Counted from the stretch's first letter, positions 243-25,051 are shown. The stretch: DNA of 64,000 bases from Chitinivibrionales bacterium (GCA_038247415.1 JBBRUX010000012.1:1-64000), one strand, 5' to 3'. The notes: a model not told the origin generated them from the sequence alone. Program-made: numbers and translations.

Positions 243-258
243 TTTTTTTCTTTCTCCT

Positions 259-280: not shown

Positions 281-371
281 TTCAAGACGGGCAAGTTTTA
301 TTTGTTTTTGCATTTAGCCGCCGCTATAAATTTCATCGTTTAAATTTATTGACACTAGCTATATGTTTGTT

Positions 372-1205: not shown

Positions 1206-1214
1206 TATCCTTTG

Positions 1215-3098: not shown

Positions 3099-3283
3099 AT
3101 AAAATTCCTTTTGAAAAAGAGACAGAGAAGCGGCTTGCGGTTCATGCAACGAATAATCATGTTTTTACAATATATGTCACGGAATGAGAACTTTTCCTCT
3201 ATGAAAATGAGCGTTTGGGGGATGTCCACTATTATATTAATACTATATGCTTAAGGAGACCAACACATTAGCAACCTGAAAGG

Positions 3284-4098: not shown

Positions 4099-6441
4099 GT
4101 GGTAGCTTTTGGTCATTACGAATTTAGATACGTGCGGTATTCTTGCCTGATTATTGCGCTGCTAGCATATTACCTAGCGCCATTGCACGCAAAGTCGCTT
4201 GCTCTTTTTGCAGACCAGGCTTCTGCTGCTCCCGCAGTTCTTGATACAAAATCCCGAACACATCTCGAAGCGAGACTATTGCCGTATTTTCGTTTGAGGG
4301 CAGCACGATTGCCTATTGTTGCCGGATGCGAAATCCCAACGCAGCAAGAACTATGGGTTCTCTCGCGCAATTATTCTGGTTTATCGACTGCCTTTAAAGC
4401 CGTGTATACGCAGGCGTATGGTGTACCCGCAGGATATCGTGTATTTGTAACGCCAAAAAAGAATGGTGAGATATGGTATACTCTCAATGGTTCCGATAAA
4501 GTCAATGGTGTTGATTCGCTCGACACAATGGGTTACGATACGCTCGATTGGCGAACGAAAAAGTTTGGTAAAAATAATATACCCGATTATATCGACGAAG
4601 TCGCCTTCGCTTTTGATAGCACGTATGCTATGATAATCGACCGTTTCGGATTTTCTGCGCCATTGCCCGCCGATAGCAGGTTTGGTAGCCCTGTGCGCTA
4701 CAAAATTATTATTTCTGCCTTGGGAACAGGAGATTATGCAATTACTACTCCGGGCGATCGTGCCGGTGCATCCCAAACGGGGTTTCGGAGCGAAATTATC
4801 CTGAGAAATTCCTGGAAAGGACCTCCCTGGGATCAGGCCGTTAACAATTACGACCTACACCCGGAACTTGCAGTGAGGGTAACAATCGCCCACGAGTTTT
4901 TTCATGCAGTTCAGTATGGTATGGCACGCACGTTGGGATCGAGAATGCCCATAGACGAATTCCCGCTTCAGTGGCTGGAGAGCAGTGCCGTGATGATGGA
5001 AGAACTCGCATTTAGTTCTGTAAACGATTATATCCAATATGCCAATGATTTTTATGCAAGACCCTCGGCTACTATTTTTTCAGATTTTTCCGATCCCTAC
5101 CAGTATAGTTTACTAGTGCTCTATCTTTATTATCATGCCGATAGCGCGCCGGGGATAGCTTTTATTAAAGATGTATTTCTTCAAAGCCAGCTGGGATCCA
5201 TAGATTTCTTTGCCAATCTCGATGCAATAGCACGCCGTTATCACACCCGATGGCTCGACCTCTTATCGAATTTCTTTACGGCAGCATATTTTAGCGGTGC
5301 AAGGGGAAATGCTTTTATTTTTATTCCCGATGCATCCCAATTACCCATGTATACAATAGTACAGGATCAACCCGATTTTTCGGGATCAATACGTAAAAGT
5401 GTTGCTCCCATGGGAATGCAGATGCTTTTGTTTGGTCAAGAGCCTTTTCGAGTCGACTCATTGCATGTTTCCTGGATTGGCACCAATGCGTCAAAAAGCG
5501 CGGTAAGTATTGGTTCCTGGAACATTTCTATGCTCTATAAAACTCAATCGGATGCCCTGTATGATACGATCGTTCCTTTTGATTCCGGATCAAGTGCCAT
5601 GAGTAGCTTGATTTGGGGAACTCATTCCGATCTGGTAATGATTGCAACAAATGGTGTTGCCGATTCGTCTCGGATAATTACAGGATCGTTTACTACCTGC
5701 GATCATCCCGTTCAAAATGGGTACATTTCAAAAGCGCTTGGGAATCAAAACGATACATTGGAATGCCGGAACTTTTTCAAAGGTAATTCGGTATGTCAGC
5801 CTGCCGTAATTTTTCCAGAAAAAGCATCAGTATCATTGGCAAACCTCAGTAGCTCAAACATACAAACCGGATCCACGGGGTTTACGATGTATGCAAATGC
5901 AGCACTTTTGTCGGTTCTTGATAGCTTTGTGGTGACCATCAAGGTGAATCCGCACCTCATTCGTTCGCTGTGCAATCAGCTCGATGCAACGCCAGAGTTG
6001 CTTAACGTCTATTTTTCTACCGACAATGGGCTATCCTGGCAAATTATTCCAAGTTCCTATGCTGTCCAAACAGGATATACTGCTACCCTTTTTAATTCCG
6101 GCATATGCATTGTGGGAGGCAAGAAACTTGGTTCTTCGGTACATGTTTATCCCAATCCTATACGGTACTCAAGTACGCACAAAGTTCACATTATTGCCAA
6201 AGATCTTTTAGAAGTTCGTATTTTCTCGGCTGGCGGAAAACTCTTGACATCATGGCGTGCGAGTGGTGTGCCTTCAGAGGATGGCTTATTTCAGCTTGAA
6301 ACAGGATCTCTGGTTGCACTGAATCCGAGGGCTCATATAAAGTGGCTCATTCCTGGAATATATTGGTTGCAGATCACTTCAAAGGATCCCATTACAAAGG
6401 GAATTAAATCGGAACGCAAAAAAATGATGGTTGTACCATGA
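4099..6441 (+). CDS. Secreted HEXXH zinc metalloprotease (MXAN_6640-like) with C-terminal T9SS-type sorting domain
   Basis: Signal peptide; 'PDYIDEVA..FD', 'TIAHEFFHAVQYG', 'WLESSAVMME'; C-terminal 'VYPNP...IFSAGGKLL...PGIYWL'. Confidence 0.75.
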   Translation: MVAFGHYEFRYVRYSCLIIALLAYYLAPLHAKSLALFADQASAAPAVLDTKSRTHLEARLLPYFRLRAARLPIVAGCEIPTQQELWVLSRNYSGLSTAFKAVYTQAYGVPAGYRVFVTPKKNGEIWYTLNGSDKVNGVDSLDTMGYDTLDWRTKKFGKNNIPDYIDEVAFAFDSTYAMIIDRFGFSAPLPADSRFGSPVRYKIIISALGTGDYAITTPGDRAGASQTGFRSEIILRNSWKGPPWDQAVNNYDLHPELAVRVTIAHEFFHAVQYGMARTLGSRMPIDEFPLQWLESSAVMMEELAFSSVNDYIQYANDFYARPSATIFSDFSDPYQYSLLVLYLYYHADSAPGIAFIKDVFLQSQLGSIDFFANLDAIARRYHTRWLDLLSNFFTAAYFSGARGNAFIFIPDASQLPMYTIVQDQPDFSGSIRKSVAPMGMQMLLFGQEPFRVDSLHVSWIGTNASKSAVSIGSWNISMLYKTQSDALYDTIVPFDSGSSAMSSLIWGTHSDLVMIATNGVADSSRIITGSFTTCDHPVQNGYISKALGNQNDTLECRNFFKGNSVCQPAVIFPEKASVSLANLSSSNIQTGSTGFTMYANAALLSVLDSFVVTIKVNPHLIRSLCNQLDATPELLNVYFSTDNGLSWQIIPSSYAVQTGYTATLFNSGICIVGGKKLGSSVHVYPNPIRYSSTHKVHIIAKDLLEVRIFSAGGKLLTSWRASGVPSEDGLFQLETGSLVALNPRAHIKWLIPGIYWLQITSKDPITKGIKSERKKMMVVP

Positions 6442-7010
6442 ATAAGAAGCATGAAGTAAAATCGTTAGCGCTGGTTTTGGGCTGCATTGTGAGCGCTGTA
6501 TGCATTGCTGCTGTCGGTAACGGGTGCGTCGTGGCTACAAAGCTGCATCGTAGCTTGGATATCGCCCACGAGAAAGTGTTTTTATTTCCCCTTGCTGATA
6601 GTACCGGATTGTTCGCATCTGTACAAGAGGGTGCAGGGTACGATGCCCTTCGTGATGATCAAGTAGCTTTAAAAAAGAATCTCGATACCGTCCTTCTGAT
6701 AGAAATGCGACGGTGCGAAAAGTTTGGTTACTATCAAATGGTAGATGATTCTTCTTCTGCTTCTGTTCACATGCAGCTACTGCTTAAACAGCCCCAATAT
6801 AAAAGGGATTCTTTGTTTGTTGTGGTGGAGTGTAGTGTTCAGCGTAAAGGAGTTGGCGTAACAGATACCTTTACTGTAGTTGCATCATGCCTTATCCCTC
6901 GTAAACAAAATTCCGATTCTCGGGAGATTAGCACGGGAAAAAATATTATCTCATTTGTCTACTATTTTCCTGCTAAAAAAATCGCTGGGCATTTTTACCT
7001 TGTTCACTAA
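6438..7010 (+). CDS. Hypothetical lipoprotein
   Basis: Overlaps upstream stop (ATGA); hydrophobic N-terminus ending in GNGC. Confidence 0.6.
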   Translation: MNKKHEVKSLALVLGCIVSAVCIAAVGNGCVVATKLHRSLDIAHEKVFLFPLADSTGLFASVQEGAGYDALRDDQVALKKNLDTVLLIEMRRCEKFGYYQMVDDSSSASVHMQLLLKQPQYKRDSLFVVVECSVQRKGVGVTDTFTVVASCLIPRKQNSDSREISTGKNIISFVYYFPAKKIAGHFYLVH

Positions 7011-7074
7011 TGGCCTTATTAAAATTTTACAATGCCTTGATTTTTTTATGAATACGATAAATTGTTCTAGACAG

Positions 7075-7094
7075 TATGCATAGTTAATTGCATA
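7075..7094. promoter_or_regulatory. Palindrome TATGCA-N8-TGCATA, candidate operator
   Basis: Inverted repeat ~70 bp upstream of the STAS gene. Confidence 0.35.
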
Positions 7095-7163
7095 ATCTGT
7101 TATGCGTGTCATTATCTAGTCTTTATAAACGCACGGTACTTCATCGTTAGCACTAGGATTATC

Positions 7164-8330
7164 ATGGATATTTCTTCGTCGCATTTTTTCGGTTACGATG
7201 TAATAAGTTTGTCTGGTGATATGCGGATCAGTGGAATACCATCTCTAACGCCGCTGCTCATGAAGCATATGCAATCAAGCATAGAGCCTAAACTTGTGCT
7301 TGATTTAACGGGCGTTATTTCTATAGACTCCTTGGCTATACGACTTCTTATCAATCTAAAAAAACGCCTCGAAGAGTCTTCTAAAACTCTTTTTTTCTAT
7401 AACCCATCATCTGTCGTTATGGAGGTACTTGTTTCAGTCAACCTAGATAAAGTATTTACCATTATCGAAAATCTTGATAGTATTAATCGGGATGTAGCAG
7501 CAACAACCTATGAACGCTATCTGCCGTATACAACTAAAATGGATGCCGTGAACAAAGTGGCATGCACGTGTGAAGTATGTGGATCATCCAATACAAGCGG
7601 CTATCTGATAGATAATTTTGCGTATGACTGGGGTTGGCTGGGTGATGAACCCTTCCCGGTTGCTTTTACGAAAGGTACCAAAGAGACGTTTGATGTGCTT
7701 TCTATTGTGCCAATAGTCTGCAATGACTGTTATATGGCATCATGCAATATCGCGCATTTTAAAGTGCGTGTAGGGGAAAAGGTTCGTATTCCTTCAATTC
7801 TCGACGAGCAATCCAAGAACATTTTGTCTAAGGGTATCAAAAAGCGCAAAAAGAAAATCGAGGATTTGGGCGAATTGCCTCCAAATTTCTTCGACTACCC
7901 CCGGGATAAAACTGCAGCCTGCATGGCCTACGAACTCGCGGAAAATTGCGCCCGCAGCATGGCTGTGGATAAAGCGGCTGCAACGCCTTTTGAAATAGGA
8001 TATCTCAATTATATCTCTATTAAATACGCTAAAAATGAACAAAAAGAAGAATTAATAAATAATTGCAGAACGTGGCTTACGCAGGTTTTGTCCGAAAAAG
8101 AACGCTATAACTGTTTCGATCTTGCACGAACCTATTTCGTCCTTGTCAATGCATCTCTCAATCTTGGTAAAGTTAAAGAAGCTGCTGAGTCGCATGCAGC
8201 GTTTACAACCATGATCAATGAGATTAAAATTGGGGCTCAAGGTATAGAAGATCCACACTTCTGGTATAAACAAGCCGATTTAATTTGGAAACGGGAAATC
8301 GAGGATCGTTCGGGTGGTCTGAAAATCTAG
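7164..8330 (+). CDS. STAS (anti-anti-sigma-like) domain fused to a Zn-binding DUF2225-like/helical domain
   Basis: 'LVLDLTGVISIDSLAIRLL' STAS motif; CTCEVC and VCNDCYMAS Cys pairs; C-terminal TPR-like helices. Confidence 0.7.
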   Translation: MDISSSHFFGYDVISLSGDMRISGIPSLTPLLMKHMQSSIEPKLVLDLTGVISIDSLAIRLLINLKKRLEESSKTLFFYNPSSVVMEVLVSVNLDKVFTIIENLDSINRDVAATTYERYLPYTTKMDAVNKVACTCEVCGSSNTSGYLIDNFAYDWGWLGDEPFPVAFTKGTKETFDVLSIVPIVCNDCYMASCNIAHFKVRVGEKVRIPSILDEQSKNILSKGIKKRKKKIEDLGELPPNFFDYPRDKTAACMAYELAENCARSMAVDKAAATPFEIGYLNYISIKYAKNEQKEELINNCRTWLTQVLSEKERYNCFDLARTYFVLVNASLNLGKVKEAAESHAAFTTMINEIKIGAQGIEDPHFWYKQADLIWKREIEDRSGGLKI

Positions 8331-9479: not shown

Positions 9480-10790
9480 TTACTGGTATTTTCCTGCTAT
9501 CCCAATTCTTGCTCTGATGAGCCCATTGGTTTCTTTTATTCCATTCGCATATATGGTTGCAGGAACCGATAAAGGCCTTATTGACTCTGCCAGATCCTCG
9601 TTACTATGAGCAAAGAAGATCCAGTTTACAATGGGGTATCGGCCGATGGGTAAGTCGTTTATGGATAATTTGTAACCGCATTCGGTTTGATTGGATGCTA
9701 GACCTGAACGCCTCAAGAAAAAACTGCTTTCGCGCAGAAATATAGAGTCAATTCCTGCATCCAGATACCAGGTGTATCCAAGAGAGTCTTTAAAAAAAGT
9801 AGCAGCAACATGATTCGGATTGGTTTTTATAACATGTGCCGGCGTTTTTTTTGCCCCTACCACAAACGATGCATGAATAGAAGGTATTGCGTAAGTAAAT
9901 CCATCTCCTGCTTGGGTTATGGCGGGTGCCATTTCGATGTAGGCTTCGCTAAAGAACGATTTAAATCGAATTGGTGCATGCAGGCTTACGGGTACACACA
10001 CCATTTGAGCGTAACAAATCTGATTGACTGCTGCTTTGCTCACGCGAAACAGAAAACTAAGGTGCAGGCTGAAATCCCCGCGTTTAATGAGGCGAATTTG
10101 TCCTATCTTGTATCGCTTGACTGGGCAATCGAGGTTGTCTTGATTAAGTTGAAATTTAAAGTTTCCAATAAGCGTTTTAAAAAATATGTTGACATGTAAT
10201 AGTCCGGCAATGTTTTGGTAGTGTTCGCTGCCAGAACTTTTTATTCCAGCCTGCAGAAAATGGAATTTTCCTTTGTCAAATTGCGCAAAGTACCAGGGCG
10301 TTTCTACCAGATCTTTAACAGGATCATAAGTAATAGTATGATCGCTCGATAAGGGAAACGTGCTCTTAGAAACGATACGAATCAAATACGTGCGCTTGTT
10401 CGAAGCTTCAACAAAGATGTCGGAAGTGGCTGCGTTCTTTTTATAATCACGTTTCTGCGCTAAGGAATCGACCGGAAGAAGGTTGTTGGTTAAGAAGGCG
10501 ATCTCATCGCGTGAATCGAGAATCCCATTGCTAAGATTTGTATTAGGAGATTCACCTTTGTCGCAGATGTATTCTCCTTCCGGAGAAATTTCGTCGATCT
10601 GGAAAGGAATAGGTTTATTGTCGCTATCAAGCACCCGAATGGTATGCAATGGTTTTCCACAGAGCATAGGAAGCAGTGCCCCGGTAATCACAATGGGTTC
10701 ACCGTGCAATGCAAAAATAATTCCTATGCAGATGAGCGCTGTGTTTACTAATCTAGTAAAGCTAAAAAGCGTTCTCATCAATACTCTCAT
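9480..10790 (-). CDS. Hypothetical exported protein
   Basis: 436-aa ORF with signal-like N-terminus and 'PIPFQIDE' motif; 4-nt overlap with upstream GH gene. Confidence 0.7.
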   Translation of the reverse strand: MRVLMRTLFSFTRLVNTALICIGIIFALHGEPIVITGALLPMLCGKPLHTIRVLDSDNKPIPFQIDEISPEGEYICDKGESPNTNLSNGILDSRDEIAFLTNNLLPVDSLAQKRDYKKNAATSDIFVEASNKRTYLIRIVSKSTFPLSSDHTITYDPVKDLVETPWYFAQFDKGKFHFLQAGIKSSGSEHYQNIAGLLHVNIFFKTLIGNFKFQLNQDNLDCPVKRYKIGQIRLIKRGDFSLHLSFLFRVSKAAVNQICYAQMVCVPVSLHAPIRFKSFFSEAYIEMAPAITQAGDGFTYAIPSIHASFVVGAKKTPAHVIKTNPNHVAATFFKDSLGYTWYLDAGIDSIFLRESSFFLRRSGLASNQTECGYKLSINDLPIGRYPIVNWIFFAHSNEDLAESIRPLSVPATIYANGIKETNGLIRARIGIAGKYQ

Positions 10791-13099
10791 CGAGTTAATT
10801 CAATAAGAAAGACCGGCTTGTTCTGTGAAATAGCCAGAGTATTATTTGCAACAGTACCTGTTTCGATAGCTCCATAATTCCAATCGTAGCAGGTATACTT
10901 CATCCCATTAAGTGGGGGCACGGTAAGGGTTGCGCCAACCCGTGCTACATTGACATCGTGTGATTTCCAGTCTATGTCATAGGCTTTGGGATTCCAGTAC
11001 CACTCTCTGCCAGGGTTAAAAGGAGTGTTTTTAATAATATCATCATGAAAAACAATGTTGGCGTTGAAGCTTGTGCTCACAAGGCAGATGCGAACAGATT
11101 TCGATTTTGCAAGCGGAAGCGAATCGGTTGATGATATTCCGAAGGCAATATATTTTTCTTGTTCAGTAACCGGATAGGGCATTCCCTTGGGATTTGAAAT
11201 GGTTACATTGTCAAGAACTATTCCATTTTTAAAACGAACTGGGCCGCCATACTGTGCGTAAAATCCAGTAAACATTGCAGTTCCAGGTGCATCAAACAGA
11301 AGATATCCTTTTTGCCAATCATGCGTAATTTCAGGAGTGGGAACAATCGGGCAGGATTCATATACCCCTCGAGCGTTATAATAGGGGCCAATAATCGAAT
11401 CGTTTGGGCGGGTTGAGTCTATCAAGAGCCTCATCCCATATCGATAGGTCGTGGGTACAAAACGAGGCCCCATTTCACCGTAACCGTTAGCCTCCCAGTT
11501 GTAAAGGCTTTTTGAGCCCATAATGAACTGTGTTGGACGTGGTGCTTTTTTAAGCTTAAAATTTTTAAAAATTTCTGCAGCCACAGCCATAGATGCATTT
11601 TGGACTTCGTCGAATTGGAAATGATACCCTTGCGCATTATGGTCGGCATTGGCATAATCCATGCGATCGGAGTACGCGGTACCTTTTTCTGCGTTAAGTA
11701 CAGTACCAAAAAAATGCCAATTGATGATATCCCAATCTTGAATTGATCCAAGCTTTACAAGCTCCATAGGGTATTCGGCGCGATATTTGGCCGGCTGCAT
11801 GATTTGCGTTTCGTAAATAAAAAAGGGCTTGCCTTCCATTTTATTATGTTCGGTCCATGGTTGAATCCAAGAAACCTTAGGCAACTCCTCGAGCTGGCTC
11901 ATCCAGGGGAATCGTTTATGATTGGGATCGGAGATAAACCCAGCATTAAAGTAAGTGTCATGCGAAATCGCATCTGCATGTTGTTGCATAAATTGTGTAG
12001 GCAAATCCCACCCAATCCCATTGTCAAACACCATGGGAGCCAGTGCGAGCGATTTCCCTAGTTTTTTAAGCGCTGCGGTTTCGGTTTGCTTTCCTTCTAT
12101 CCAGATTTTAAGAAGAAAGGCAATAACATCGGCGCCTCGTTTGGCATTGAAATTAGATCGATCATAGGTTTGTTTAACGCCTGTTGCAGCTACGCCTACG
12201 CCAAGACTTGCCGCTTGTAAATCACTCACATCACCTAAAAGAGGCAATAGGGCAATAGTGCGTTTATCCAGCGATTCTCCAGGAAGAAAATTGCCAATCC
12301 ATGCGGCGCTCAAGGCTTCGTGGCTGCTATATTTTTGAGACAGATACCTGTTCCAGCGGGAAGATAGCTCTTGCTTAAAAAAAGCAGGGAGTTGTTGGGT
12401 ATACCATCCCTGTTTCATATTTTGAAACCACCACTCTTCATTACTAAGTTCCCACACTGCAAAGAGCGGGTCGTCGCAATAGCGCAATCCGGTATATTGA
12501 TTGACATGCTGCGCTATTGCTGTCATGTGGTTTATAGCGATGGCCTGAATTCGTGCATCCCAATAGCGTGCGGGATTATTACGAATTTCCATTTGTTTCA
12601 AGGCAGAAAGGCTTGCGCTCCACTTATGCTGGCCTGTGGTATCGGCAATAATGCTGCTATCGGCTGCAGTTGCAGAGCCAGTGCTATTGAGGCCGGCAAA
12701 CCAAACTTTAAAACCTTCTTTTTTAAGGCAAAAGAGAAAATGATCTATTAAATCTCCCTCTGAACCATCCCCTTTAACATAGGGTACCCCAACAGACCAG
12801 CTTCTTACAAGGTTAAATCCTTGCTTTTTTAAACGGCTTACGCATGCAACATTGTCTGCATAGTTTTTCCCTGGAAATTGTCCAATAACACCCCAGTAGC
12901 GTACCCGTTTCCCTTGCGTAAACAAGTGGCCATCTTTGATGCACACATATTCCGATGAATCGGGGAGTGTATCCTTTTTTTTAGGAGCAATGGGGGCGTT
13001 TGTGCCAAATCCTACGCTCATTCCCAAAAAGCAGATAAGAATTGCAATACGAAAAGTCATCATGATTACTCCAAAGAAAAGGTTAACTACACTACGCAA
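10787..13099 (-). CDS. Secreted clan GH-A glycoside hydrolase (GH5/GH42/GH148-like)
   Basis: 'GKRVRYWG', 'LKKQGFNLVR', 'HVNQYTGLRYCDDP..AVWELSNE' (acid/base), 'KPFFIYE' (nucleophile). Confidence 0.75.
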   Translation of the reverse strand: MRSVVNLFFGVIMMTFRIAILICFLGMSVGFGTNAPIAPKKKDTLPDSSEYVCIKDGHLFTQGKRVRYWGVIGQFPGKNYADNVACVSRLKKQGFNLVRSWSVGVPYVKGDGSEGDLIDHFLFCLKKEGFKVWFAGLNSTGSATAADSSIIADTTGQHKWSASLSALKQMEIRNNPARYWDARIQAIAINHMTAIAQHVNQYTGLRYCDDPLFAVWELSNEEWWFQNMKQGWYTQQLPAFFKQELSSRWNRYLSQKYSSHEALSAAWIGNFLPGESLDKRTIALLPLLGDVSDLQAASLGVGVAATGVKQTYDRSNFNAKRGADVIAFLLKIWIEGKQTETAALKKLGKSLALAPMVFDNGIGWDLPTQFMQQHADAISHDTYFNAGFISDPNHKRFPWMSQLEELPKVSWIQPWTEHNKMEGKPFFIYETQIMQPAKYRAEYPMELVKLGSIQDWDIINWHFFGTVLNAEKGTAYSDRMDYANADHNAQGYHFQFDEVQNASMAVAAEIFKNFKLKKAPRPTQFIMGSKSLYNWEANGYGEMGPRFVPTTYRYGMRLLIDSTRPNDSIIGPYYNARGVYESCPIVPTPEITHDWQKGYLLFDAPGTAMFTGFYAQYGGPVRFKNGIVLDNVTISNPKGMPYPVTEQEKYIAFGISSTDSLPLAKSKSVRICLVSTSFNANIVFHDDIIKNTPFNPGREWYWNPKAYDIDWKSHDVNVARVGATLTVPPLNGMKYTCYDWNYGAIETGTVANNTLAISQNKPVFLIELTR

Positions 13100-13478: not shown

Positions 13479-13847
13479 TTATACATACCAGATTGCCAGA
13501 CATGTTTCGCAGCCAAAAACTTCAACTCCTGCAAAACGAATTTTTTGGAACCATGTTTTTTTTTCTCGTAGAGTAACCGTTTTTGCCTGGCATGAAGGGC
13601 ATTGCTGCCGTAGCACGTTTTTTTCGGCTTGCTTTTTAGAATTAAAATCCAGTTGCCACTGTTTAAAATGGGGGAGCGCCATAGCCAGGTCTTTTTTATC
13701 CACCATAACAAGGTAGTTGCGAATGCCGCCTAAAAATTTTGGAAGGCCATAGGCTTTCGCGAAGGCGTTAAGATTGCTAGATTTTAATGTTTCAACAAGG
13801 TCATTAGCCTCAAATTGATCGAGGTATTTGCTCAAAATTGTACTCAT
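13479..13847 (-). CDS. DUF2007-like protein with C-terminal Zn ribbon
   Basis: 'EA.....L....I.AF' N-terminus; CPSC and CETC. Confidence 0.65.
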   Translation of the reverse strand: MSTILSKYLDQFEANDLVETLKSSNLNAFAKAYGLPKFLGGIRNYLVMVDKKDLAMALPHFKQWQLDFNSKKQAEKNVLRQQCPSCQAKTVTLREKKTWFQKIRFAGVEVFGCETCLAIWYV

Positions 13848-14139
13848 GAAAAGACCTTTGGATTAATTTTTTTGGGCACCTAGGCAGCAAGCTTCTACAT
13901 AACGTGGGGAACATTTATTCCTTGTATTGTATTCATAAAATACACCGTGGGCTCTGGAATAAAAGAATTGTGGTTGTCTTCCCTAAAAAATGCAGGAAGG
14001 ATACCTAAAAGTAATGAAATAAATGCATTACCAGCTACTTTTACTTCGACAAAATTTGTAACGATGAATTATACTTATTAAGAGTAGTATTTATTGTAAC
14101 GAGCGTCAGAGTATGTCATGTGAGGAGATTGTTTGACCT

Positions 14140-16971
14140 ATGATCTATCGATGGATTTTGAACCTATTTTTAATTGCTTGCTCTTTATATGGGACGCTTT
14201 GCGCGGAACCATCATCTCAACTGAAACAATCATTCACAAGCCAATTCCACTATGTCGATTCACTTTTTCTCTCTCTGGTTGCTGCCGACGAAATCCGCAT
14301 GAAGGAACTCGATCCCGCTGATGGCCTTTTTAAGGCATTTATTAGCAAGTATCCCGAATTTAAAACGCTTGTCAGGACAAGTTCCAAAGGTGTTGTTGTC
14401 AATGAAGTTGGCGATGGCATGAAAAGTCGAGATCTTTCAACCTCCGATTTATTTGTTATACCCAAAACAACCGGCAAGCCTTTTTTTGGCAAGATCGAAA
14501 TCGAAGGTGATAATTCCTTTATAGCATGTAGTCAACCAATTACCGTTTCTCTTTCCAATGGAGAAAAGCGTTTTGGTGGTGTTGTTATCTGTCGACTCGA
14601 TTATGTTGCAATAATCAAGCGGATCGTGCGACTTTTCAAGGATGAATCGTTTGAAATATTAGCCAACGATAAGCCGGTTGTTCGCAATAAAATGGAAAAA
14701 GTAGATCTGGATACTTTTTCCGAGCAGACCGTGTTATATAAAGCCCGGCAGCTCTTTGTAATTCGCTATGTTTCAACCGATGGTGAACCCGCAATAAAGC
14801 CCCAAAAAGATACCATGGTTGATCTTACTGCTCCCGCAAAGCAAGGTGCTCAAATTTCTCGCAGTCAGGATTCACTCTTTTCCGATGTTCCTGCAACTGC
14901 TAAACCAAATTCTGTTTCTAAAACTTCTGTATCGGTTACGCCAACGCCACCAGAAACGCCAGAAACGATGCCACAAGCTTCTTCTGCGCGTGAGCCGTTT
15001 TTTGTTCAGTCGTGGTTTTGGATGATACTCTTTCCGCTTGTGTGCTGCATACTTGCTGTTGGCCTTTATTTTTCTGTTTTCAGAAAACGCTTTGTCAAGA
15101 AGTTGCACCACGACGCCGACGAAACCCTCATCGATTTCTCTGAAGCAACCTTTGAGATGGACTCAACGGTAGAAGAAATCACGATGGTTGCTTCTGCACC
15201 CCCGTCGCTTAATCGGGAAGAGCTTGTAGCTCATTTACGCAAAGAAATTGCACAACAGATCAGCCGTAGCGAAATTAAAAAGATCACAAGCGAGGTTCGT
15301 CAATCGATTGTGGATGATGTAACCCAACAGATTCGTAATAACGAACTTGACACAATATCAGTTCGCCTCCGTACCGAGCTAACTGCAAAACTACGCGAAA
15401 ACCTTACGTCTGAGATACATCAGCACATTGTTGAAACCGAGACCCAAACGTTAACCAATGAAATTCGGGCATTGCATAGGCAATCGCTAGAAACTGAACT
15501 CATTGCAGCGCATGGCCAAGACATGGAGCTTGAACTCTATGAACAATTGCGCATAAATATCCAGGCCCGTGTAAAGCTAGAAAGTGAGCAGTCTCTTTAT
15601 GACGCTTCTAAAAACCAGCTATCACTTGAAATTCGCTCTGCTCTTTACGAAAAAGAATACCAATCCATTAAAGATGCCCTGCTTTTAGAAGCGCATGAAG
15701 CAATTAGGGCAGACATCGAAAAAAACGAATCGGTTAAGATTCAAAATGAAATTCGAAGGGAATTAGCAGAGCTTCTTACCCAGCTCATTCGCGATCAGGA
15801 AGAAAAGATTATTTATAATGAGCAACGCGAAAAAGTTGCAGCAGATGTGCGTAATGGAATCGTTGCCGATGAGATGGAGTCTATCATAGAAGAAGAACGC
15901 AGCGTTCTTGCACAGCAGATTCATAAGCAGATACTTTCTTCCGAAAAAGATGCGCTTACCGAAAAGGAACGCAAAAATGTTCGTGCCGACATCGTAGCAA
16001 TTTTGCAGCACACTGAGTATGCAGCCTTAGTTGCAGAGGAGCGTACACAGCTCCGGGCCACTATTACGAAGAAATTAGAAGAGACCGATGCCGAACGGAT
16101 TGCCGTAAGTATTCGAGATGAGATGCAGATTAAAATTCGTCACATGGTTCGTACTCGTGAAATCGGCTCTATTACAGAAAGAATGCGTTCTGAGATTGCG
16201 TCAACCATTCATAAAGAACTCTTGGAAACAGAATCTGAGGGGCTCAAAGATCTCCAGCGTGAAAAACTTTCTGGCGAAATTAGAGTCAAAATGGAGAAAG
16301 AAGAAAAAGCTACCATCGCTGATAAAATCAGAGACGCATTTATTTCCGACGAAATGGCACGTGTAAATGCCGAAGAGCGCCCAGAGATAGTTGCAGAAGA
16401 ACGTCGCAGAGTTCTTGTGGAAGAAGGATCGGGAATTAGGGAGAGCGTTCGTAAACAAATTCACGAAGAAGAGCTTGCGGCCTTGCACGAACGAATTAAA
16501 AAGGATATTTACGATGACACGGTAGAAATCCTTAAGCTCAATCTCGATGAAAAATACAAGGCGGTTTTGCAGGAAAAGCTCAGAGATCTCAAGGTGAAAA
16601 CGCGTTCAACACTTTCCGGAGAGCTTTTATCACTTGCAAAGGCCGATTATTCCCAGCTTCTCGAACATTTGGATCACGTGCAGGAGCATGTGGCAGGAAC
16701 AAAAATTCTCGATTCGTATAGAACAACGTTACATCTTTTAAAAGAAGAGAAAAAGAAGTACAAGTATTTCAATTTGAATTCTACTCAAACCGAAAGCTTG
16801 CTCGCGTATCTTGACAAACAAAATGGGTTATTCGAAGAATATTTCGAAGAACTAACCGAGGGGCTTAAAAAAGCAACTTTTCAAATGCAAAGTCTACTTA
16901 ACACATTCGAGAATAGGCTTGCGGATGAGAGTCATCATAGCGAAACCACCGATGCACATGAATCTGCTTAA
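14140..16971 (+). CDS. Membrane-anchored protein: Cache/PDC-like periplasmic domain, P/T/S linker, TM helix, long 24-aa-repeat helical tail
   Basis: Signal peptide; 'DLSTSDLFVIPKTTGKPFFG...SQPI...FGGVV' Cache-like pattern; TM WFWMILFPLVCCILAVGLYF; repeats visible in translation. Confidence 0.8.
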   Translation: MIYRWILNLFLIACSLYGTLCAEPSSQLKQSFTSQFHYVDSLFLSLVAADEIRMKELDPADGLFKAFISKYPEFKTLVRTSSKGVVVNEVGDGMKSRDLSTSDLFVIPKTTGKPFFGKIEIEGDNSFIACSQPITVSLSNGEKRFGGVVICRLDYVAIIKRIVRLFKDESFEILANDKPVVRNKMEKVDLDTFSEQTVLYKARQLFVIRYVSTDGEPAIKPQKDTMVDLTAPAKQGAQISRSQDSLFSDVPATAKPNSVSKTSVSVTPTPPETPETMPQASSAREPFFVQSWFWMILFPLVCCILAVGLYFSVFRKRFVKKLHHDADETLIDFSEATFEMDSTVEEITMVASAPPSLNREELVAHLRKEIAQQISRSEIKKITSEVRQSIVDDVTQQIRNNELDTISVRLRTELTAKLRENLTSEIHQHIVETETQTLTNEIRALHRQSLETELIAAHGQDMELELYEQLRINIQARVKLESEQSLYDASKNQLSLEIRSALYEKEYQSIKDALLLEAHEAIRADIEKNESVKIQNEIRRELAELLTQLIRDQEEKIIYNEQREKVAADVRNGIVADEMESIIEEERSVLAQQIHKQILSSEKDALTEKERKNVRADIVAILQHTEYAALVAEERTQLRATITKKLEETDAERIAVSIRDEMQIKIRHMVRTREIGSITERMRSEIASTIHKELLETESEGLKDLQREKLSGEIRVKMEKEEKATIADKIRDAFISDEMARVNAEERPEIVAEERRRVLVEEGSGIRESVRKQIHEEELAALHERIKKDIYDDTVEILKLNLDEKYKAVLQEKLRDLKVKTRSTLSGELLSLAKADYSQLLEHLDHVQEHVAGTKILDSYRTTLHLLKEEKKKYKYFNLNSTQTESLLAYLDKQNGLFEEYFEELTEGLKKATFQMQSLLNTFENRLADESHHSETTDAHESA

Positions 16972-17090: not shown

Positions 17091-18725
17091 CTACAAACTC
17101 ACGCTCGAATGCCCTTTGTACATTTTGTCCCGAAGTTTTCGCACATCGGGATCCATCATGTATTCGTCGAATGCCATCATTCTGTCTATGTATCCAGTGG
17201 GCGTAATTTCGATGATGCGATTCGCAATAGTATTGACAAACTGATGGTCATGGCTTGCAAAGAGCACTATGCTATTAAATTCGATAAGACCAGTATTGAG
17301 AGCAGAAATCGATTCGAGGTCGAGATGGTTTGTTGGTTCATCGAGAATGAGTACGTTTCCACCTGCAAGCATCATCCGTGAGAGCATACAGCGCACGCGT
17401 TCCCCTCCAGAGAGCACACTCGCTTTCTTGAGTGATTCGTCTCCCGTAAAGAGCATCCGCCCCAGAAACCCGCGAATGTAGGTTTCTTCTTGGTCTTTTG
17501 AATATTGTCTCAACCAATCGATAAGGTTGAGATCGGTATCGAAGTAGTGACCATTTTCTTTGGGGAAATAGGTTGGCGAAATGGTAACACCCCATGTTAT
17601 TTCACCAGAGTCTGGTTTAAGTTCATTTGCCAAAATAGAAAAAAGAGTCGACTTTGCTAAAGCGTTCGAGCCAACAAAGGCAATTTTGTCGCCTTGATTT
17701 ATGGTAAGTGAAAAGTTTGAAAGAAGAGGTGCCCCGTCTACCGACTTGTTTACATTATCTACAGTCAATACAATCCTGCCACAATCACGGTCTGCTTTAA
17801 ATCCAACGTAGGGAAATTTTCTAGATGAAATAGGAATTTCATCGATCGTCAGCTTATCGATAAGCTTTTTGCGTGATGTTGCCTGACGGGCTTTTGACGC
17901 ATTTGAAGAGAATCGGGCAATGAAATCGCTCAGTTCTTTAATTTTATCTTCTTTGCGTTTGTTTTCATTACGTTTTTGAGAAAGCGCAAGCTGGCTTGCC
18001 TGATACCAAAAATCGTAGTTACCTACATACACAGAAATTTTGCTAAAATCGATATCGGCAATATGGGTACAGACTTTATTAAGAAAGTGACGGTCATGAG
18101 AAACCACAATAACGGTATTCTCGAATTTGTAAAGAAATTCCTCGAGCCAGGTTATCGAATCGAGATCGAGATGGTTTGTTGGTTCATCCAGAAGAAGAAT
18201 ATCAGGATTGCCAAAGAGCGCTTGCGCCAAGAGAACCCTTATTTTTTCACCACTCTCAAGCTCCCTCATTTTTTTCTGGTGCGTGCCTTCTGCTATGTCT
18301 AAGCCCGAAAGAAGCGCAGCTGCCTCGGATTCGGCTTCCCATCCGTTAATTTCTGCAAGCTCCCCCTCAATTTCAGATGCACGCAACCCTTTTTCGTCGG
18401 TGAAATCGTCCGATGCGTAAATGAGTTCTCGTTCGTTAAGAATATCAAACAAATGTTTATGACCCATGATGACGGTATTGAGTACGGTCTGATCATCAAA
18501 AGCAAACTGATCCTGCCGAAGCACCGCGATGCGCTCCTTGGGAGCTTTAATCACATCCCCCGATGATTGCTCGATTTCGCCCGAGAGGATTTTTAAAAAC
18601 GTAGATTTGCCTGATCCATTTGCTCCAATAAGGCCATAGCAATTGCCTGGAGTGAACTTGATGTTAACCTCTTTAAAGAGGGTGCGTTTGCCATAAATAA
18701 GCGAAAGATTGGACGTACTGATCAT
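17091..18725 (-). CDS. ABC-F family ATPase (YbiT/YkpA-like)
   Basis: Two ABC cassettes (GANGSGKST; LLLDEPTNHLD twice; LSGGE), no TM segments. Confidence 0.95.
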   Translation of the reverse strand: MISTSNLSLIYGKRTLFKEVNIKFTPGNCYGLIGANGSGKSTFLKILSGEIEQSSGDVIKAPKERIAVLRQDQFAFDDQTVLNTVIMGHKHLFDILNERELIYASDDFTDEKGLRASEIEGELAEINGWEAESEAAALLSGLDIAEGTHQKKMRELESGEKIRVLLAQALFGNPDILLLDEPTNHLDLDSITWLEEFLYKFENTVIVVSHDRHFLNKVCTHIADIDFSKISVYVGNYDFWYQASQLALSQKRNENKRKEDKIKELSDFIARFSSNASKARQATSRKKLIDKLTIDEIPISSRKFPYVGFKADRDCGRIVLTVDNVNKSVDGAPLLSNFSLTINQGDKIAFVGSNALAKSTLFSILANELKPDSGEITWGVTISPTYFPKENGHYFDTDLNLIDWLRQYSKDQEETYIRGFLGRMLFTGDESLKKASVLSGGERVRCMLSRMMLAGGNVLILDEPTNHLDLESISALNTGLIEFNSIVLFASHDHQFVNTIANRIIEITPTGYIDRMMAFDEYMMDPDVRKLRDKMYKGHSSVSL

Positions 18726-19366: not shown

Positions 19367-20758
19367 TTAAGAAAAAGAAGCAAGGTTACTTTCGATGGTG
19401 GCAATAGTTTCTTGGAGGGCAGGATCGGAGGAGAGCGTGATTTCCATTCGTTTGCATGCATGGATGACTGTAGAGTAGTCGCGGCCTCCAAATTGTAAAC
19501 CAATGGTTCGTAGCGATTGGCGTGTCCATTTTTTGCATAAATACATTGCTGCATAGCGGGGGAGCGTTACTTCTCGTTTACTTGAATGAGCGGTGATTTG
19601 ATTCACGCTTATATTAAAGGCTTGAGCAACCTGGTTTTGGATGTGTTCTATTGATAATCGTAATTCTTTTTGCGCGATAATATCGCCGCATATTTCGCGG
19701 GCAACATCCAGAGTTATATCTCTTCCGGTAAAAGATGCAGAAGCAATCAGCTTAATAAGAATTCCCTCGAGTTCCCGGATATTTGAGGTGATATGGCTTG
19801 CTATATATTCGATGACAGCATCATCGAGCATCAGTCCATCCATTTCAACTTTTTTACGGAGAATTGCCATACGGGTTTCGAGGTTTGGTGGCTGGATGTC
19901 GGTAATGAGCCCGCCCATGAACCGATTGATAATATGATGCATCATATCGGGGATTTTATCGGGGGAACGATCAGAAGAGAGGACGATTTGTTTATTTTCG
20001 AGAAGTAGCTTATTAAAAATGCGAAAAAATTCTTTTTGAGTACCTTGTTTACCGCTAAAAAATTGAATATCATCGATGAGAAGAAGGTCGGTGTCTTTAA
20101 ATTGTTTATAAAAAGAGGTTGAATCCTTTTTCTCGATGACGTAGCCAATATATTGGTTCGTGAAATCTTCTGAAGTGAGGTAGGTGACATTTGAGGCAGT
20201 AGATTCACTCTGCGCAAAATGACCGATAGATTGCAGGAGATGGGTTTTCCCTAAACCGGTTGAGCCATATATAATAAGTGGATTAAACGTTGTTTTGCCA
20301 GGAGCTTCTGCAACAGCGAGCGCTGCAGCTTGTGCCATACGATTGTTATCGCCTATGATAAATTTATCGAATACATAATTGGGGTGGAACTGGCGTTTTG
20401 ATTTATTGGATGGAATTATTCGGGGCGTTTTAACGAGTGTAATTGATTCTTGAATTGGTTCTATGATTTTCCAATCTTTTTGAACCGATACAAAGCTTAG
20501 TGGCAGCGCAGAGATTCCTTGATTTGTAAGCGCTTCTGTAATAACGGTGCTAAAATGCTCTTCGATAAAATCTGCAAAAAATTGGTTAGGAACCAGAATC
20601 TTGGGAGACCCATTATCAGAAAATGCAAGGTCTGTAGACCTAAACCAGGTCTCAAAGCTGCTACTACCAATTTTTTCGGAGATATAGGTTAAACATGTCT
20701 GCCAGATTGGAACGTCTGGCTGGTGCACACTGTTGGAGGTTCTTAACATGTTATCCAC
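19367..20758 (-). CDS. dnaA: Chromosomal replication initiator DnaA (divergent domain IV)
   Basis: FETWF, VPNQF, Walker A GSTGLGKTHLL, LLLIDDIQF, NIRELEG, FGGRDYSTVIHA; start GTG 20758 or ATG 20749. Confidence 0.96.
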   Translation of the reverse strand: MDNMLRTSNSVHQPDVPIWQTCLTYISEKIGSSSFETWFRSTDLAFSDNGSPKILVPNQFFADFIEEHFSTVITEALTNQGISALPLSFVSVQKDWKIIEPIQESITLVKTPRIIPSNKSKRQFHPNYVFDKFIIGDNNRMAQAAALAVAEAPGKTTFNPLIIYGSTGLGKTHLLQSIGHFAQSESTASNVTYLTSEDFTNQYIGYVIEKKDSTSFYKQFKDTDLLLIDDIQFFSGKQGTQKEFFRIFNKLLLENKQIVLSSDRSPDKIPDMMHHIINRFMGGLITDIQPPNLETRMAILRKKVEMDGLMLDDAVIEYIASHITSNIRELEGILIKLIASASFTGRDITLDVAREICGDIIAQKELRLSIEHIQNQVAQAFNISVNQITAHSSKREVTLPRYAAMYLCKKWTRQSLRTIGLQFGGRDYSTVIHACKRMEITLSSDPALQETIATIESNLASFS

Positions 20759-20960
20759 ATTTGTTTTTATTTACAGATTGTTTTATATGAACAAATCAAT
20801 TTAAGCGCTTTTAGATTCCATTTTTTTTACTTAATTATTTGTAACTTATTATAAATTAAGAGTATACAAGGTTACGGTAATGTTATTTATCTGTTAGGCT
20901 AATGTTATCAACGGGTTATTAACATACTTTTAACGAGTTATCAACATACAGTTATCAACA
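20751..20960 (+). promoter_or_regulatory. DnaA-box cluster in AT-rich dnaA upstream region (oriC candidate or autoregulatory site)
   Basis: TTATCCACA 20751; TTATCAACG 20905; TTATTAACA 20916; CTTTTAACG 20927; TTATCAACA 20938 and 20952. Confidence 0.75.
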
Positions 20961-21265: not shown

Positions 21266-21304
21266 CTCTAGTACAACCATCAACAATTTCACGTGGAGGC
21301 AATC

Positions 21305-22048
21305 ATGGTTTCTTCACTCTCAAATGGAACACATAAGCTTTGGCCATCTGGTTCCCAGAATACATCACTACCTGGCAAAGATGCTGCCATGGATTCCTTT
21401 GTAAGCAAACGATATGCTACCCCGGTTGTTCCCTCGCGCACAATGACGCTTACGTCAACAACGCAGGTTTCCCAAAAGGAATCGATGTATGTTGAATTTT
21501 CTAATGCCGATGGTGACACGGTTAAGCTTTCGTATGCACGGTCTTTGGAGTATGCGCAAACAGTAAATCAGACCTCGACAGATGACGCAGGTTTAAGCCT
21601 TTCCCAAAAGGATCAAAAAGCTATAGTTGATAAAATGATAGATGAGTATAAAAATATGAAGCATTACCTTATGGCATTGATTGCAGATAGTCTTGATGGA
21701 AAAAAGGATACAACAAAAGACGTTAATCCTCAGGAATCAACGCAGCCGACCGAAACAGCTGATGTAACCGCAGGACTTCCAGAATATTGGAATGCCGAGA
21801 ATACATCGCAGCGTATTGTTGATTTTGCGCTTCAATTTGCAGGGCAAGGTAAGGGTAACTCTGCCGAATTCATTAAAACTATGAAGGATGCAATCGAAAA
21901 AGGGTTTGGGCAAGCTTCTGCTATTCTTGGGAGCGTGTCTTCGCAAACTGCAAAATTGACACAAGATACTCATGACCTCGTCATGAAAAAGCTCGATTCA
22001 TGGCTATCGGCACAATCCGGTTCAGATCAAATACAAGCGGCTGCTTAG
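21305..22048 (+). CDS. DUF5610-like protein
   Basis: 'EYWNAENTSQRIVDFA...DAIEKGF.QA..ILG.....T.DLV.KKLD' pattern; ATG 21305 after GGAGG. Confidence 0.7.
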   Translation: MVSSLSNGTHKLWPSGSQNTSLPGKDAAMDSFVSKRYATPVVPSRTMTLTSTTQVSQKESMYVEFSNADGDTVKLSYARSLEYAQTVNQTSTDDAGLSLSQKDQKAIVDKMIDEYKNMKHYLMALIADSLDGKKDTTKDVNPQESTQPTETADVTAGLPEYWNAENTSQRIVDFALQFAGQGKGNSAEFIKTMKDAIEKGFGQASAILGSVSSQTAKLTQDTHDLVMKKLDSWLSAQSGSDQIQAAA

Positions 22049-23028: not shown

Positions 23029-23082
23029 TATAAATATACCGTTTTGCACTTTGATTATTTGACAATTGTCTGGGAGGATTAG

Positions 23083-25051
23083 TATGGGTATAACCATGAA
23101 CGGCCCGTCGGGTCTGGATACAGCAAGCATTATCGATCAGCTTGTTAATCTGGAGACCTCTACACGGGTAACGCCAATCCAACGACAGAAAGCTACCTTT
23201 CAAATTAAAATCGATGCATACTCGAAAATGCAATCGTATATAAATGACATTGGCTCTAAAGCATCGGCTATTTCGGATGAGGCTGCCTTTAATGTTTACA
23301 AAACAACAACAACTAATAAAGATGTTGCAACGCTTACAGGAACTACGGGTAGTGTTGCAGGTGCCTATGACGTAAAAGTTTTCGGGCTTGCTACCTACGA
23401 AAAATTAATTAGTCTCGATGGAAAAATTACCGACCAAAATGCAGCGCTGAGCACCTTGGGAATTTCAACCGGTGCAATAACTATCGATGGCACTTCACTT
23501 ACGGTAACTAACACCGATACGCTCCAGGATTTGCGCTCAAAAATTAATTCTGCCACCGATGCAACGGGTAAAAAACTTAATGTTACCGCCACGGTGCTTA
23601 AAGTTGCAGATAATAATTATCGGTTGGTTCTTACGGCCAAAAATACGGGCAATGCTGGAGTTGTGTATAAAGGCGATACCTTTGCATCTCTGGGTGTGAT
23701 TGCCGATTCTATTACAGGCGACAAAGGATCAAAATCACAGATCGTTACTTCCGCAGCTGATATTTCATCGGCATTTAATGCGTTAGTCACCGGCGACGTT
23801 ATTACCTATGGTGGTACCGATTCATTTGGAAATGCTGTAACCGGACGATACGTTATTCCTGCAACAAAAGATATAAATGAATTACGCAAGAACATAGAAA
23901 ATGCGTTTCATGGTAGTATGACTACGTCAATAGATGTTTCTGGCAAATTACTTTTAACAGCTAATAATCAGGGTGATTCTGCCGCGAGTATGACAAGCTT
24001 TTCTATGGGTGCAACTCCATATGCTTTTTCTACCACTCAAGCAGGATCTCCCGGTGCTGGCATTCTAACAACGGGCAAAGATGCCTATTTTGGTATCGAT
24101 GGCATTTCTATGCGTTCGACAACCAATTCTGCCACAGGGTTTGTTGCAGGTGTTACTCTTTCTATGGTTAAAGTTTCGGCAACAGAATCAATTCATTTAG
24201 AAATAGCACGTGACGGCGATGCAGTGGTTGCAAAAGTACAGAGCCTCTTGGACTCCTTTAATGCACTTGTTCGCTTTGGTAAAGAGCAAACCGCCTATGG
24301 CGATCCAAAACTCAAAACGCGCAAAAAGGGCGACCTCGCAGGCGATATGACTATCACCAGTGCGATTGGTCAATTTAGAACTCTTTTCCAAAAGCAGTTT
24401 GGGGCATTTGGTGGAAATTTCCAGAACTTGGCGAATATAGGGCTTAAAACAGATTATTCAACTGCCGAAATTTCAATTGACAAGGATAAACTTAAGGCAT
24501 CCTTGGATACAAATTTTGATGAAGTTGTTCGTATGTTTGTAACACGGGGAGTTACCGATAATACCAGTGTAGCAATGGGCAGATCAACCAAAGATACGAC
24601 CTCGGGAAAATATTCGCTCGAAGAAATTAGTAGCAATACTCAAATTCGAGCTCAGCTTATTGGAGGCGATGGAACGTGGTTTACATCGGACGTTCGGGAT
24701 AATGATATTGTTTCTTTTTCGAGTGGTCCACTTAAAGGGCTTTCTCTGACTGCTCCGGCAAATAGTATTCCCGCACTAACTCCTACAACTTTTACTTTTC
24801 AGAAAGGCTTATCGGCAACGTTTAAAGAACTTGCAGATGGTCTTACTACCACGCAAACGGGGCTTATTGCAACACGTCAAGCATCGTTTCAACGCAGCAT
24901 GGATGATGCCGATAAGCGTATTGCCGATCAGCAGAATAGGATTGCAGAGTATAAATTGCGCCTTACCAATCAATTTAGCGCTATGGAGCAAGCCATACAA
25001 AAGATGAAATCTCAATCTGTCAATATGACCAATCAAATCAAATCAAATTAA
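23083..25051 (+). CDS. fliD: Flagellar filament cap protein FliD
   Basis: 'SGLDTASIIDQLVNLE' N-terminus, 'RLTNQFSAMEQAI.KM.SQ' C-terminus; ATG 23083 after GGAGG. Confidence 0.95.

Follow-up and report, generated by a model that had tools for sequence, protein, structure and literature searches.

A membrane-anchored protein family of the Chitinivibrionales with a Cache-type ectodomain and a long tail of period-4 octad repeats

Inspection of a 64,000-nucleotide stretch of DNA from a Chitinivibrionales bacterium (GCA_038247415.1 JBBRUX010000012.1:1-64000; this whole stretch is called the window below) showed one open reading frame (ORF), coding for a protein named P0001, to end in a long tail built of eight-residue units (octads) with a period of 4.00 residues. 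P0001 belongs to a small family of inner-membrane proteins, so far found only in Chitinivibrionales and other Fibrobacterota metagenome-assembled genomes (MAGs). Period 4 is a property of this family, conserved despite sequence identities of 25-34%. With a probability of about 0.4, we propose that P0001 is a length-tunable, tethered stalk or scaffold that presents a conserved tip to a putative partner.

The hydrophobicity Fourier spectrum of the P0001 tail contained one dominant peak, at a period of 4.00 and with a power of 335; in 300 shuffled sequences, the maximum over all periods had a mean of 65 and a 99th percentile of 102. The power at periods of 3.5, 3.6, 3.67 and 3.75 was 5, 14, 2 and 1, respectively, and heptad-like power (36-53) was confined to the last ~90 residues of the protein. 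A BLOSUM62 autocorrelation of residues 346-850, with z scores derived from 200 shuffles, yielded z = 9.0, 8.0, 6.6 and 6.1 for lags 24, 72, 8 and 16, respectively; at lags 7 and 14 the values were -0.5 and -2.0. Rows of eight residues are in register from about residue 345, and a single unbroken phase runs from there to about residue 836. An earlier note, made from the DNA sequence, had described the tail as a non-heptad repeat of period 4; the Fourier spectrum bears this out, since 3.5 is not the dominant period.

Position 6 of the octad was I, L, V, M, F or Y in 57 of 61 units (93%). Position 2 was hydrophobic in 48% of the units and E in 21 of 62, while R was found at position 3 in 21 of 62 and E at position 1 in 19 of 62; positions 1 and 8 were mostly acidic. 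Counted every four residues along the rod, the periodic position was I in 38, L in 32, E in 21 and V in 11 of 123 cases. When the sequence was arranged in 20 rows of 24 residues, the consensus had E at position 1 (11/20), a hydrophobic residue at position 5 (19/20), R at position 10 (12/20) and a hydrophobic residue at position 21 (19/19). The consensus given in the earlier note (E1, R10 and hydrophobic residues at 5, 13, 17 and 21) holds over these 20 rows, and the units it quoted are present as written (Table 1). The super-period of 24 is confirmed, but the note's count of ~15 copies is too low against the 20 rows found, and the basic unit is the octad, with ~60 octads making up these rows. 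The variant units of 8, 16 and 32 residues that it had listed are needless, all octads lying in one phase that continues across every 24-mer boundary. The tail (492 residues) contained only eight Gly and three Pro residues, with no regular helix breaker.

At the DNA level, Tandem Repeats Finder detected no repeat within the tail; its sole match was a 9-bp sequence present twice at 14950-14967, in the part coding for the periplasmic linker. Since there is no tandem repeat in the DNA of the tail, its units are old and diverged, and a recent tandem duplication of rod units is ruled out. The assembly of the organism itself was also scanned for period 4, across the 2,381 ORFs that are 200 aa or longer. 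P0001 was the only strong outlier, with a power of 173 compared with 92 for the next ORF (99.9th percentile, 91). Ordinary heptad proteins, with a power of ~200 at 3.5, are present in the same genome.

Relatives were identified with HMMER, run exhaustively against 1.84 billion representatives, which matched 94 proteins at E ≤ 0.001; ~25 of them were near-full-length relatives with 25-34% identity. A word-index homolog search recovered P0001 alone, and a scan of genome contigs with the single protein as the query recovered no relative. Matches were found in 28 of 41 genomes of the order, including that of the window, and in 16 of the 41 the match extended to the tail and the C-terminal module (families f1, f2, f3 and f6, as read from the match table). 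No such match was found in the searched genomes of families f5 and f9. The named records of the relatives are MAGs of Chitinivibrionales, Fibrobacteria and Fibrobacterota. In the genome of the window, a single copy of the gene was found. Three sediment metagenome runs contain the sequence in full and may be the source of this DNA; no RNA run is listed among those that contain it.

Of the 25 full-length proteins P0001-P0025, counting P0001 itself, 22 had their highest power at a period of 3.95-4.00, over regions of more than 100 residues; in the three others the peak was at 8.05 (P0023), 5.10 (P0024) and 4.30 (P0025). All 29 tails tested were strongly positive at lags 8, 16 and 24, and lags 7, 11 and 14 were never significant. 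Alignment-free phase tracks of 34 tails revealed a single phase over 300-480 residues in P0001-P0004, P0010, P0017, P0018, P0020 and P0023, a change at the terminus only in P0014 and P0019, and a single -1 slip in most of the other tails. Counted as unique events, this slip is one shared single-residue event located after P0001 residue 672.

The tails of the family range from ~73 residues (P0032 and P0026) to ~520 residues on the same N-terminal domain, transmembrane (TM) helix and C-terminal module, so repeat number does vary among homologs, a point that the earlier note had proposed to check. The variable, low-occupancy part of the family alignment corresponds to P0001 residues 337-480. In the well-aligned residues 537-830, three large indel events were found, of 16, 48 and 104 residues; all are multiples of eight, although aligning periodic sequences favours gaps of such sizes.

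Conservation within the family is highest over the last ~110 residues, and the module that they form was present in 47 of the 94 proteins (P0001 included). K871, N878, L879, N880, Q883, T884, E885, L887, Y890 and L891 are near-invariant columns. AlphaFold2 (AF2) modelling of the fragment 628-943 alone gave a predicted local distance difference test score (pLDDT) of 84.9 and one helix of 224 residues (pLDDT up to 97), followed by an antiparallel hairpin. The heptad-like power of the terminal region is consistent with ordinary antiparallel packing there, and in the model the tip would lie at the end of the rod that is most distant from the membrane. The statement of the earlier note that the protein has no output domain is not supported, since a conserved hairpin, its tip motif nearly invariant, terminates the rod. 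Foldseek produced no match to the C-terminal model at E ≤ 0.001. A wide VIA-align search detected only generic antiparallel hairpins (IpaB, EmrA, the dynein stalk, Rad50 and PspA) at Z 9-11, covering model residues ~137-316; helical chance matches in VIA-align reach Z ~13, above the hairpin matches found. An ESM Atlas search with residues 745-943 returned no usable match.

The P0001 model shows the dCache fold at the N-terminal side, with a long N-terminal helix followed by two α/β PDC modules, and the location of this domain is extracytoplasmic: the hydrophobic N-terminus and the TM helix 291-313 flank it. The N-terminal segment itself, judged by its sequence, would be either a signal peptide or a signal-anchor (TM1). 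A Foldseek search with the model of residues 25-211 matched the sensor domain of KinD (4jgo/4jgr) with E 6e-9, probability 1.00, a TM-score of 0.68-0.70 and a root-mean-square deviation of 3.3 over 189 columns, in agreement with the Cache-like periplasmic domain proposed at the outset. The next matches were the sensor domains of Mlp24, LuxQ, PctC and Tlp3, among many further dCache sensors, and the ESM Atlas neighbours of the ectodomain were Cache clusters, at 0.90. The Pfam model dCache_1 (PF02743; gathering score 45 bits) gave no match in P0001 at E ≤ 1; sub-threshold matches were obtained for seven of the 25 family members (best E 7.5e-4), and the best relative sharing only the N-terminal domain reached 35.6 bits. 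Conserved motifs of the ectodomain include RTNSKG..VN, WSRPI and RFGGVVA. The order is also rich in paralogs of ~290-330 residues in which this dCache-like ectodomain and a TM helix are followed by almost no cytoplasmic part, and other paralogs of this ectodomain, 450-580 residues long, bear unrelated, unannotated tails; P0037, P0043, P0048, P0049, P0054 and P0056 are among the relatives of these two kinds.

Within the periplasmic linker, residues 236-285 consist to 66% of P, S, T, G, Q, A or N, and the equivalent segment is not conserved in the relatives. Periplasmic linkers are 41-75 residues long in 19 of 24 family members and 6-28 residues long in the remaining five, and in most members non-conserved, low-complexity linkers lie on both sides of the TM helix. 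These flexible linkers would break the rigid helical connection needed for signalling by piston or rotation, as in chemoreceptors and kinases. The tail is placed in the cytoplasm because a basic cluster, RKRFVKK, follows the TM helix. That a single TM helix precedes a long, non-heptad helical tail, as the earlier note had it, accords with hydropathy, the Fourier spectrum and AF2. Searches of P0001 against Pfam and NCBIfam gave no match, the MCP signal domain included. A recognised output domain was found in none of the 27 ectodomain-sharing relatives and none of the 25 full-length members. A profile search against PDB sequences returned ZipA (E 0.45), a meaningless match that covers only the TM helix and the charged linker.

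Table 1. Position of P0001, its parts and the signals upstream of its gene; positions are counted from the first nucleotide of the window
Feature	Position	Strand	Basis or remarks
Whole ORF, 943 aa (P0001)	14140..16971	+	Stop codon included; intact full-length relatives at 25-34% identity
N-terminal hydrophobic segment, aa 1-21	14140..14202	+	Sequence; AF2 helix 2-20; TM-scoring equivalent in several relatives
Periplasmic tandem-PDC (dCache-type) domain, aa 25-211	14212..14772	+	AF2 pLDDT 84-93; Foldseek
P/T/S-rich, disordered periplasmic tether, aa 215-289	14782..15006	+	AF2 pLDDT < 50
TM helix, aa 291-313	15010..15078	+	Hydropathy scan (286-316); AF2 helix 291-313
Disordered cytoplasmic tether, aa 314-360	15079..15219	+	AF2 pLDDT < 50 at 314-353 and 356-359; not conserved
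Octad-repeat rod, aa 361-836	15220..16647	+	~60 units E-[I/L/E]-R-x-x-[I/L]-x-E; period 4.00, super-period 24
Six 24-residue units quoted in the earlier note, aa 554-697	15799..16230	+	Exact substrings
Conserved C-terminal hairpin module, aa 837-943	16648..16968	+	Helix 855-873, loop 874-880, helix 881-941; heptad-like periodicity
Near-invariant tip motif, aa 871-891 (KKYKYFNLN..QTE..L..YL)	16750..16812	+	At the hairpin loop (position from AF2)
Shine-Dalgarno-like GAGGAG	14122..14127	+	12 nt 5′ of the ATG at 14140; read from sequence
Promoter-like site TCGACA-18-TATACT	14046..14075	+	10/12 matches; consensus match only

If P0001 is a tethered stalk of the kind proposed, its ectodomain would bind a small ligand or an envelope component, and the conserved tip would dock a putative partner at the other end. 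The rod would project tens of nm into the cytoplasm; were it straight, its 486 helical residues, with the α-helical rise of 0.15 nm each, would make up to ~70 nm. Evolution would tune the length of the rod by the gain and loss of octads, mainly at the membrane-proximal end. The protein would then be a length-defining stalk or scaffold rather than a conformational signal transducer. A role as a scaffold or molecular ruler, already raised in the earlier note, is plausible, and by analogy the architecture resembles that of positional markers and hubs more closely than that of classical receptors. The order of the domains, the period with its conservation, the dCache fold, the predicted helices, the conserved tip, the flexible linkers and the differences in length come directly from the analyses; the oligomeric state, the partner, the ruler or scaffold role and the packing of the rod are what we infer.

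Several observations weigh against this proposal. AF2 is prone to predict long helices for any helix-prone sequence. Modelled at full length on the family alignment, P0001 had a mean pLDDT of 68.4, with rod helices at 367-478, 485-622 and 628-852, and a predicted TM-score (pTM) of only 0.32, so the predicted global arrangement is not fixed. The model breaks at 479-484 and 623-627, and near residues 486-536 the alignment is uneven, its indels there measuring 1, 3, 5, 6, 9, 10, 15, 16 and 29 residues; on account of both, the modelled rod may be hinged or folded back. The octad phase runs unbroken across the two AF2 breaks, which would be explained by a continuous structure and not by a fold-back with arbitrary loops. 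Gap lengths taken per row of the MAFFT alignment were not enriched for multiples of four (38 of 209); per-row statistics are uninformative here because shared single-column events are counted repeatedly, and unique events and phase tracks were used instead. Further, the octad-preserving indels could be partly a product of repeat duplication and not of structural constraint. No conserved neighbour pointing to a function was found in 11 distinct related loci. The ispF gene (YgbB family) lies 3′ of the octad gene on the same strand in nine of the 11 (L002, L004, L006/L009, L007, L008 and L012-L015; L003/L010 and L006/L009 are the same contigs and were counted once); in the window, the octad gene is followed not by ispF but by a convergent ABC-F gene. 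In four loci (L012, at 1-3582, L013, L014 and L015), the type VI secretion system (T6SS) gene tssM/icmF lies upstream of the octad gene. Finally, no known coiled-coil geometry buries a periodicity of 4.0 (PMC4786415), and a simple rod may not be what the protein really forms.

The last of these points bears on what the rod might be. On an ideal α-helix, the hydrophobic moment of the rod drifts by 8.8 degrees per residue, that is, one turn per ~36-41 residues. E at position 1 lines one side of the I/L/V ridge, and R/K at positions 3 and 7 line the other; these charged flanks resemble those of coiled-coil cores and, by that analogy, hint at side-by-side packing. In Hartmann et al. (2016, PMC4786415), the range accessible to coiled coils is given as ~3.33-3.9 residues per turn, with an upper limit of ~3.9 that leaves 4.0 outside, and the most extreme periodicity known is a local 3.8 in YadA. 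We tentatively suggest that the octad rod may represent a new class of α-helical fibrous structure, in which a period of 4.0 has been selected over ~300-480 residues, beyond the coiled-coil limit. Such a structure could be an undescribed assembly geometry (e.g. a lattice of straight helices, each touching several of those around it through its winding ridge), a bundle with a strong right-handed twist, or a monomeric helix stapled by an unbroken i/i+4 ladder of Ile and Leu, the hydrophobic counterpart of an ER/K helix. Whichever of the three applied, it would serve the family as a stalk of programmable length.

Copies of the rod might instead self-assemble laterally, forming a bundle, lattice or filament of a non-canonical kind, P0001 being a membrane-anchored component of a cytoskeleton or array. 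About 25% of the rod positions form the conserved I/L/V ridge, which needs burial, and the ridge carries E at position 1 and R/K at positions 3 and 7, as around coiled-coil cores. The drift of the hydrophobic moment and the autocorrelation peaks at lags 24 and 72 (72 residues are 20 turns of a 3.6-residue helix) also fit an assembly, in which each 24-residue unit could form one i+4 ridge, turned by 240 degrees relative to the ridge before it and possibly touching three neighbours in turn. Cache-type receptors, moreover, are normally dimers. However, this three-neighbour geometry derives from ideal helix angles, the packing is not known from any fibrous protein, and P0001 is tethered to the membrane by a flexible linker, with a single gene copy found, so that we regard self-assembly as unlikely. 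A two-copy complex prediction for residues 554-745 with the family alignment gave ipSAE values of 0.00 and 0.00; having been made with no control runs, it counts neither way.

It is quite unlikely, in our view, that P0001 is a transmembrane receptor of a new type, in which a ligand signal from the dCache domain is relayed by clustering or oligomerisation to a tip that controls a cytoplasmic effector. The strongly conserved motifs of the ectodomain would fit a receptor, and the distal hairpin recalls the tip of methyl-accepting chemotaxis proteins (MCPs), cytoplasmic domains of which were among the structural matches (3g67, Z 9.4; 2ch7, Z 9.0; 6s1k, Z 8.9), although these lie below the helical chance level of ~13. 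Disordered, non-conserved linkers of ~40-75 residues on either side of the TM helix in most members speak against signal relay, as does the lack of MCPsignal, HAMP, kinase and cyclase domains in every family member. Nor does the presence of the protein follow that of flagella: in family f9, FliD was found in seven of seven genomes and the octad protein in none of those searched, and four genomes (G008, G027, G034 and G037; completeness 96, 96, 94 and 73%) have the octad protein with FliD not found, so a flagellar link is rejected. It is very improbable that the tail is an α-solenoid or zig-zag of ~24-residue helices, of the MgtE_N/FliG kind, capped at boundaries of the S/T/D-E type. P0002 does match Pfam MgtE_N (PF03448), with 27.2 bits compared with a cut-off of 25.9, and many 24-mer boundaries read S/T/D and then E, like a capping box. 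The match is limited to one of 25 members, which is not P0001; Gly, Pro and Asn show no regular spacing, AF2 predicts uninterrupted helices of 112-225 residues (pLDDT up to 97), and the octad phase passes straight through every unit boundary.

As to its surroundings, the gene looks monocistronic: it has a Shine-Dalgarno-like and a promoter-like site of its own (Table 1), its upstream neighbour is divergent (13479-13847, minus strand), and downstream lies a convergent gene for an ABC-F ATPase (17091-18725, minus strand). The number of promoter-like sites in the region was not above the shuffle expectation, and an Rfam search of the window gave no match. Two overlapping ORFs on the minus strand, 9480-10790 and 10787-13099, code for proteins of 436 and 770 aa with hydrophobic N-termini and no Pfam match; they apparently form an operon of orphan exported proteins adjoining the octad gene. 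In the related loci with tssM/icmF, this gene ends 1-1.5 kb before the octad gene, with a small ORF between them and, in L014, also a cold-shock protein gene; a Pfam scan of the window ORFs from 372 to 25051 identified no T6SS gene. A block of three genes was seen near the octad gene in relatives (L012, 8162-12426; L014, 6777-11147), where it is convergent and follows ispF, and in the window (4099-8330, plus strand), where it lies ~6 kb upstream of the octad gene. Its products are two orphans, of 780 and 190 aa, neither belonging to a Pfam family, and a protein of 388 aa that has a STAS domain at its N-terminus. On the other side, dnaA (19367-20758, minus strand) is located 2.4 kb downstream of the octad gene. 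DnaA-box-like 9-mers (one exact, two with one mismatch) cluster immediately upstream of this gene, at 20751-20960, where the AT content of that stretch is highest (GC 0.38), and the site is possibly oriC; over the whole window, the 23 DnaA boxes counted (16.4 expected) do not stand out from shuffled sequence. Genes for a DUF5610 protein (21293-22048) and for FliD, the flagellar cap protein (23066-25051), both on the plus strand, lie a few kb away.

The family described here is an uncharacterised, envelope-spanning one of the Chitinivibrionales and Fibrobacterota, with a Cache-type ectodomain, flexible tethers, a very long cytoplasmic stalk and a conserved tip. If the rod turns out to form a novel supercoil, to make lattice contacts in a new way or to be a single stable helix of a new kind, it would be useful for the design of rigid protein spacers. 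Coiled coils are the best-parameterised protein fold, and a family that keeps a period of 4.00 over hundreds of residues, retains its register at 25-34% identity and varies in length by whole octads is a natural test beyond the ~3.33-3.9 bound stated in PMC4786415.

The ectodomain of P0001 is of a known kind, and its overall layout has analogues. The same N-terminal fold is found in the dCache/tandem-PDC sensors KinD of B. subtilis, Mlp24 and LuxQ of Vibrio, PctC of Pseudomonas and Tlp3 of Campylobacter, where it likewise lies outside the membrane and before a TM helix. The membrane-proximal module of P0001, however, looks reduced (four strands in AF2), and a disordered linker of ~75 residues leads to the TM helix, where those receptors have a rigid helix; further, in the 27 relatives scanned this type of ectodomain never occurs with a classical output domain. 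The MCPs are similar in architecture only: they, too, join a sensor ectodomain through a TM helix to a long, helical stalk in the cytoplasm that ends in a hairpin tip of high conservation, and their stalks differ in length among members by whole repeat units. Neither MCPsignal (PF00015) nor HAMP was found in P0001 or the 25 family members (Pfam, and NCBIfam for P0001). The MCP stalk is based on heptads (period 3.5, at which the power for P0001 is 5) and that of P0001 on octads (4.0, power 335). Moreover, in the P0001 model only the last ~60-90 residues are paired as a hairpin instead of the whole stalk, and, unlike in the MCPs, flexible linkers flank the TM helix. The polar hubs HubP and FimV also share the architecture alone: a periplasmic binding domain and one TM helix are followed by a cytoplasmic region that is long, acidic and repetitive and by a small, conserved module at the C-terminus. 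These hubs have a periplasmic LysM domain and a C-terminal FimV motif, neither of which was matched in P0001 by Pfam or NCBIfam; their repeats are unrelated to those of P0001, whose ectodomain is dCache-like.

Among helical rods, the single α-helix (SAH) domains of the ER/K or E4K4 type likewise have a long predicted helix rich in Glu, Arg and Lys, an eight-residue element and a possible role as a spacer. They are defined by a very high fraction of charged residues and by enrichment of opposite charges at i/i+4. In P0001, 38% of the residues are charged and opposite-charge pairs have z = 0.4 at i/i+4 and -0.6 at i/i+3, which rules out an ER/K helix; in contrast to such domains, 93% of the P0001 octads have a hydrophobic position 6. 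The earlier note had compared the tail to the right-handed coiled coils of FliH and ATPase stalks. FliH/YscL carries AxxxG(xxxG)n repeats which, according to PMC2674601, have Gly or Ala at every fourth helix position, so that one residue class recurs every four residues as in P0001. The small residues of FliH, however, occur in short runs, whereas the periodic residues of P0001 are Ile, Leu and Val over ~120 four-residue steps with charged flanks. A GxxxG repeat of the FliH type is thus ruled out (the tail has only eight Gly), and the analogy fails on this count and because 4.0 exceeds the ~3.9 limit (PMC2674601 and PMC4786415). In the open-access literature, only the FliH GxxxG repeats and the E4K4 SAH peptides were found as helical families with an octad or a period of 4, and the conserved 4.0/8/24 periodicity of the rod was not found described; it contradicts the coiled-coil bounds as stated in PMC4786415. 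Non-heptad, right-handed coiled coils (hendecads, 3.67; pentadecads, 3.75; and, locally in YadA, 19/5 = 3.8) likewise have a long helix with a seam above the heptad periodicity. A coiled coil of the heptad, hendecad or pentadecad type is nevertheless ruled out for P0001, since its peak of 4.00 lies beyond ~3.33-3.9; it is kept over ~480 residues, above the ~3.9 limit given in the same source (PMC4786415). Formally, the P0001 rod corresponds to the limit of an endless run of stutters.

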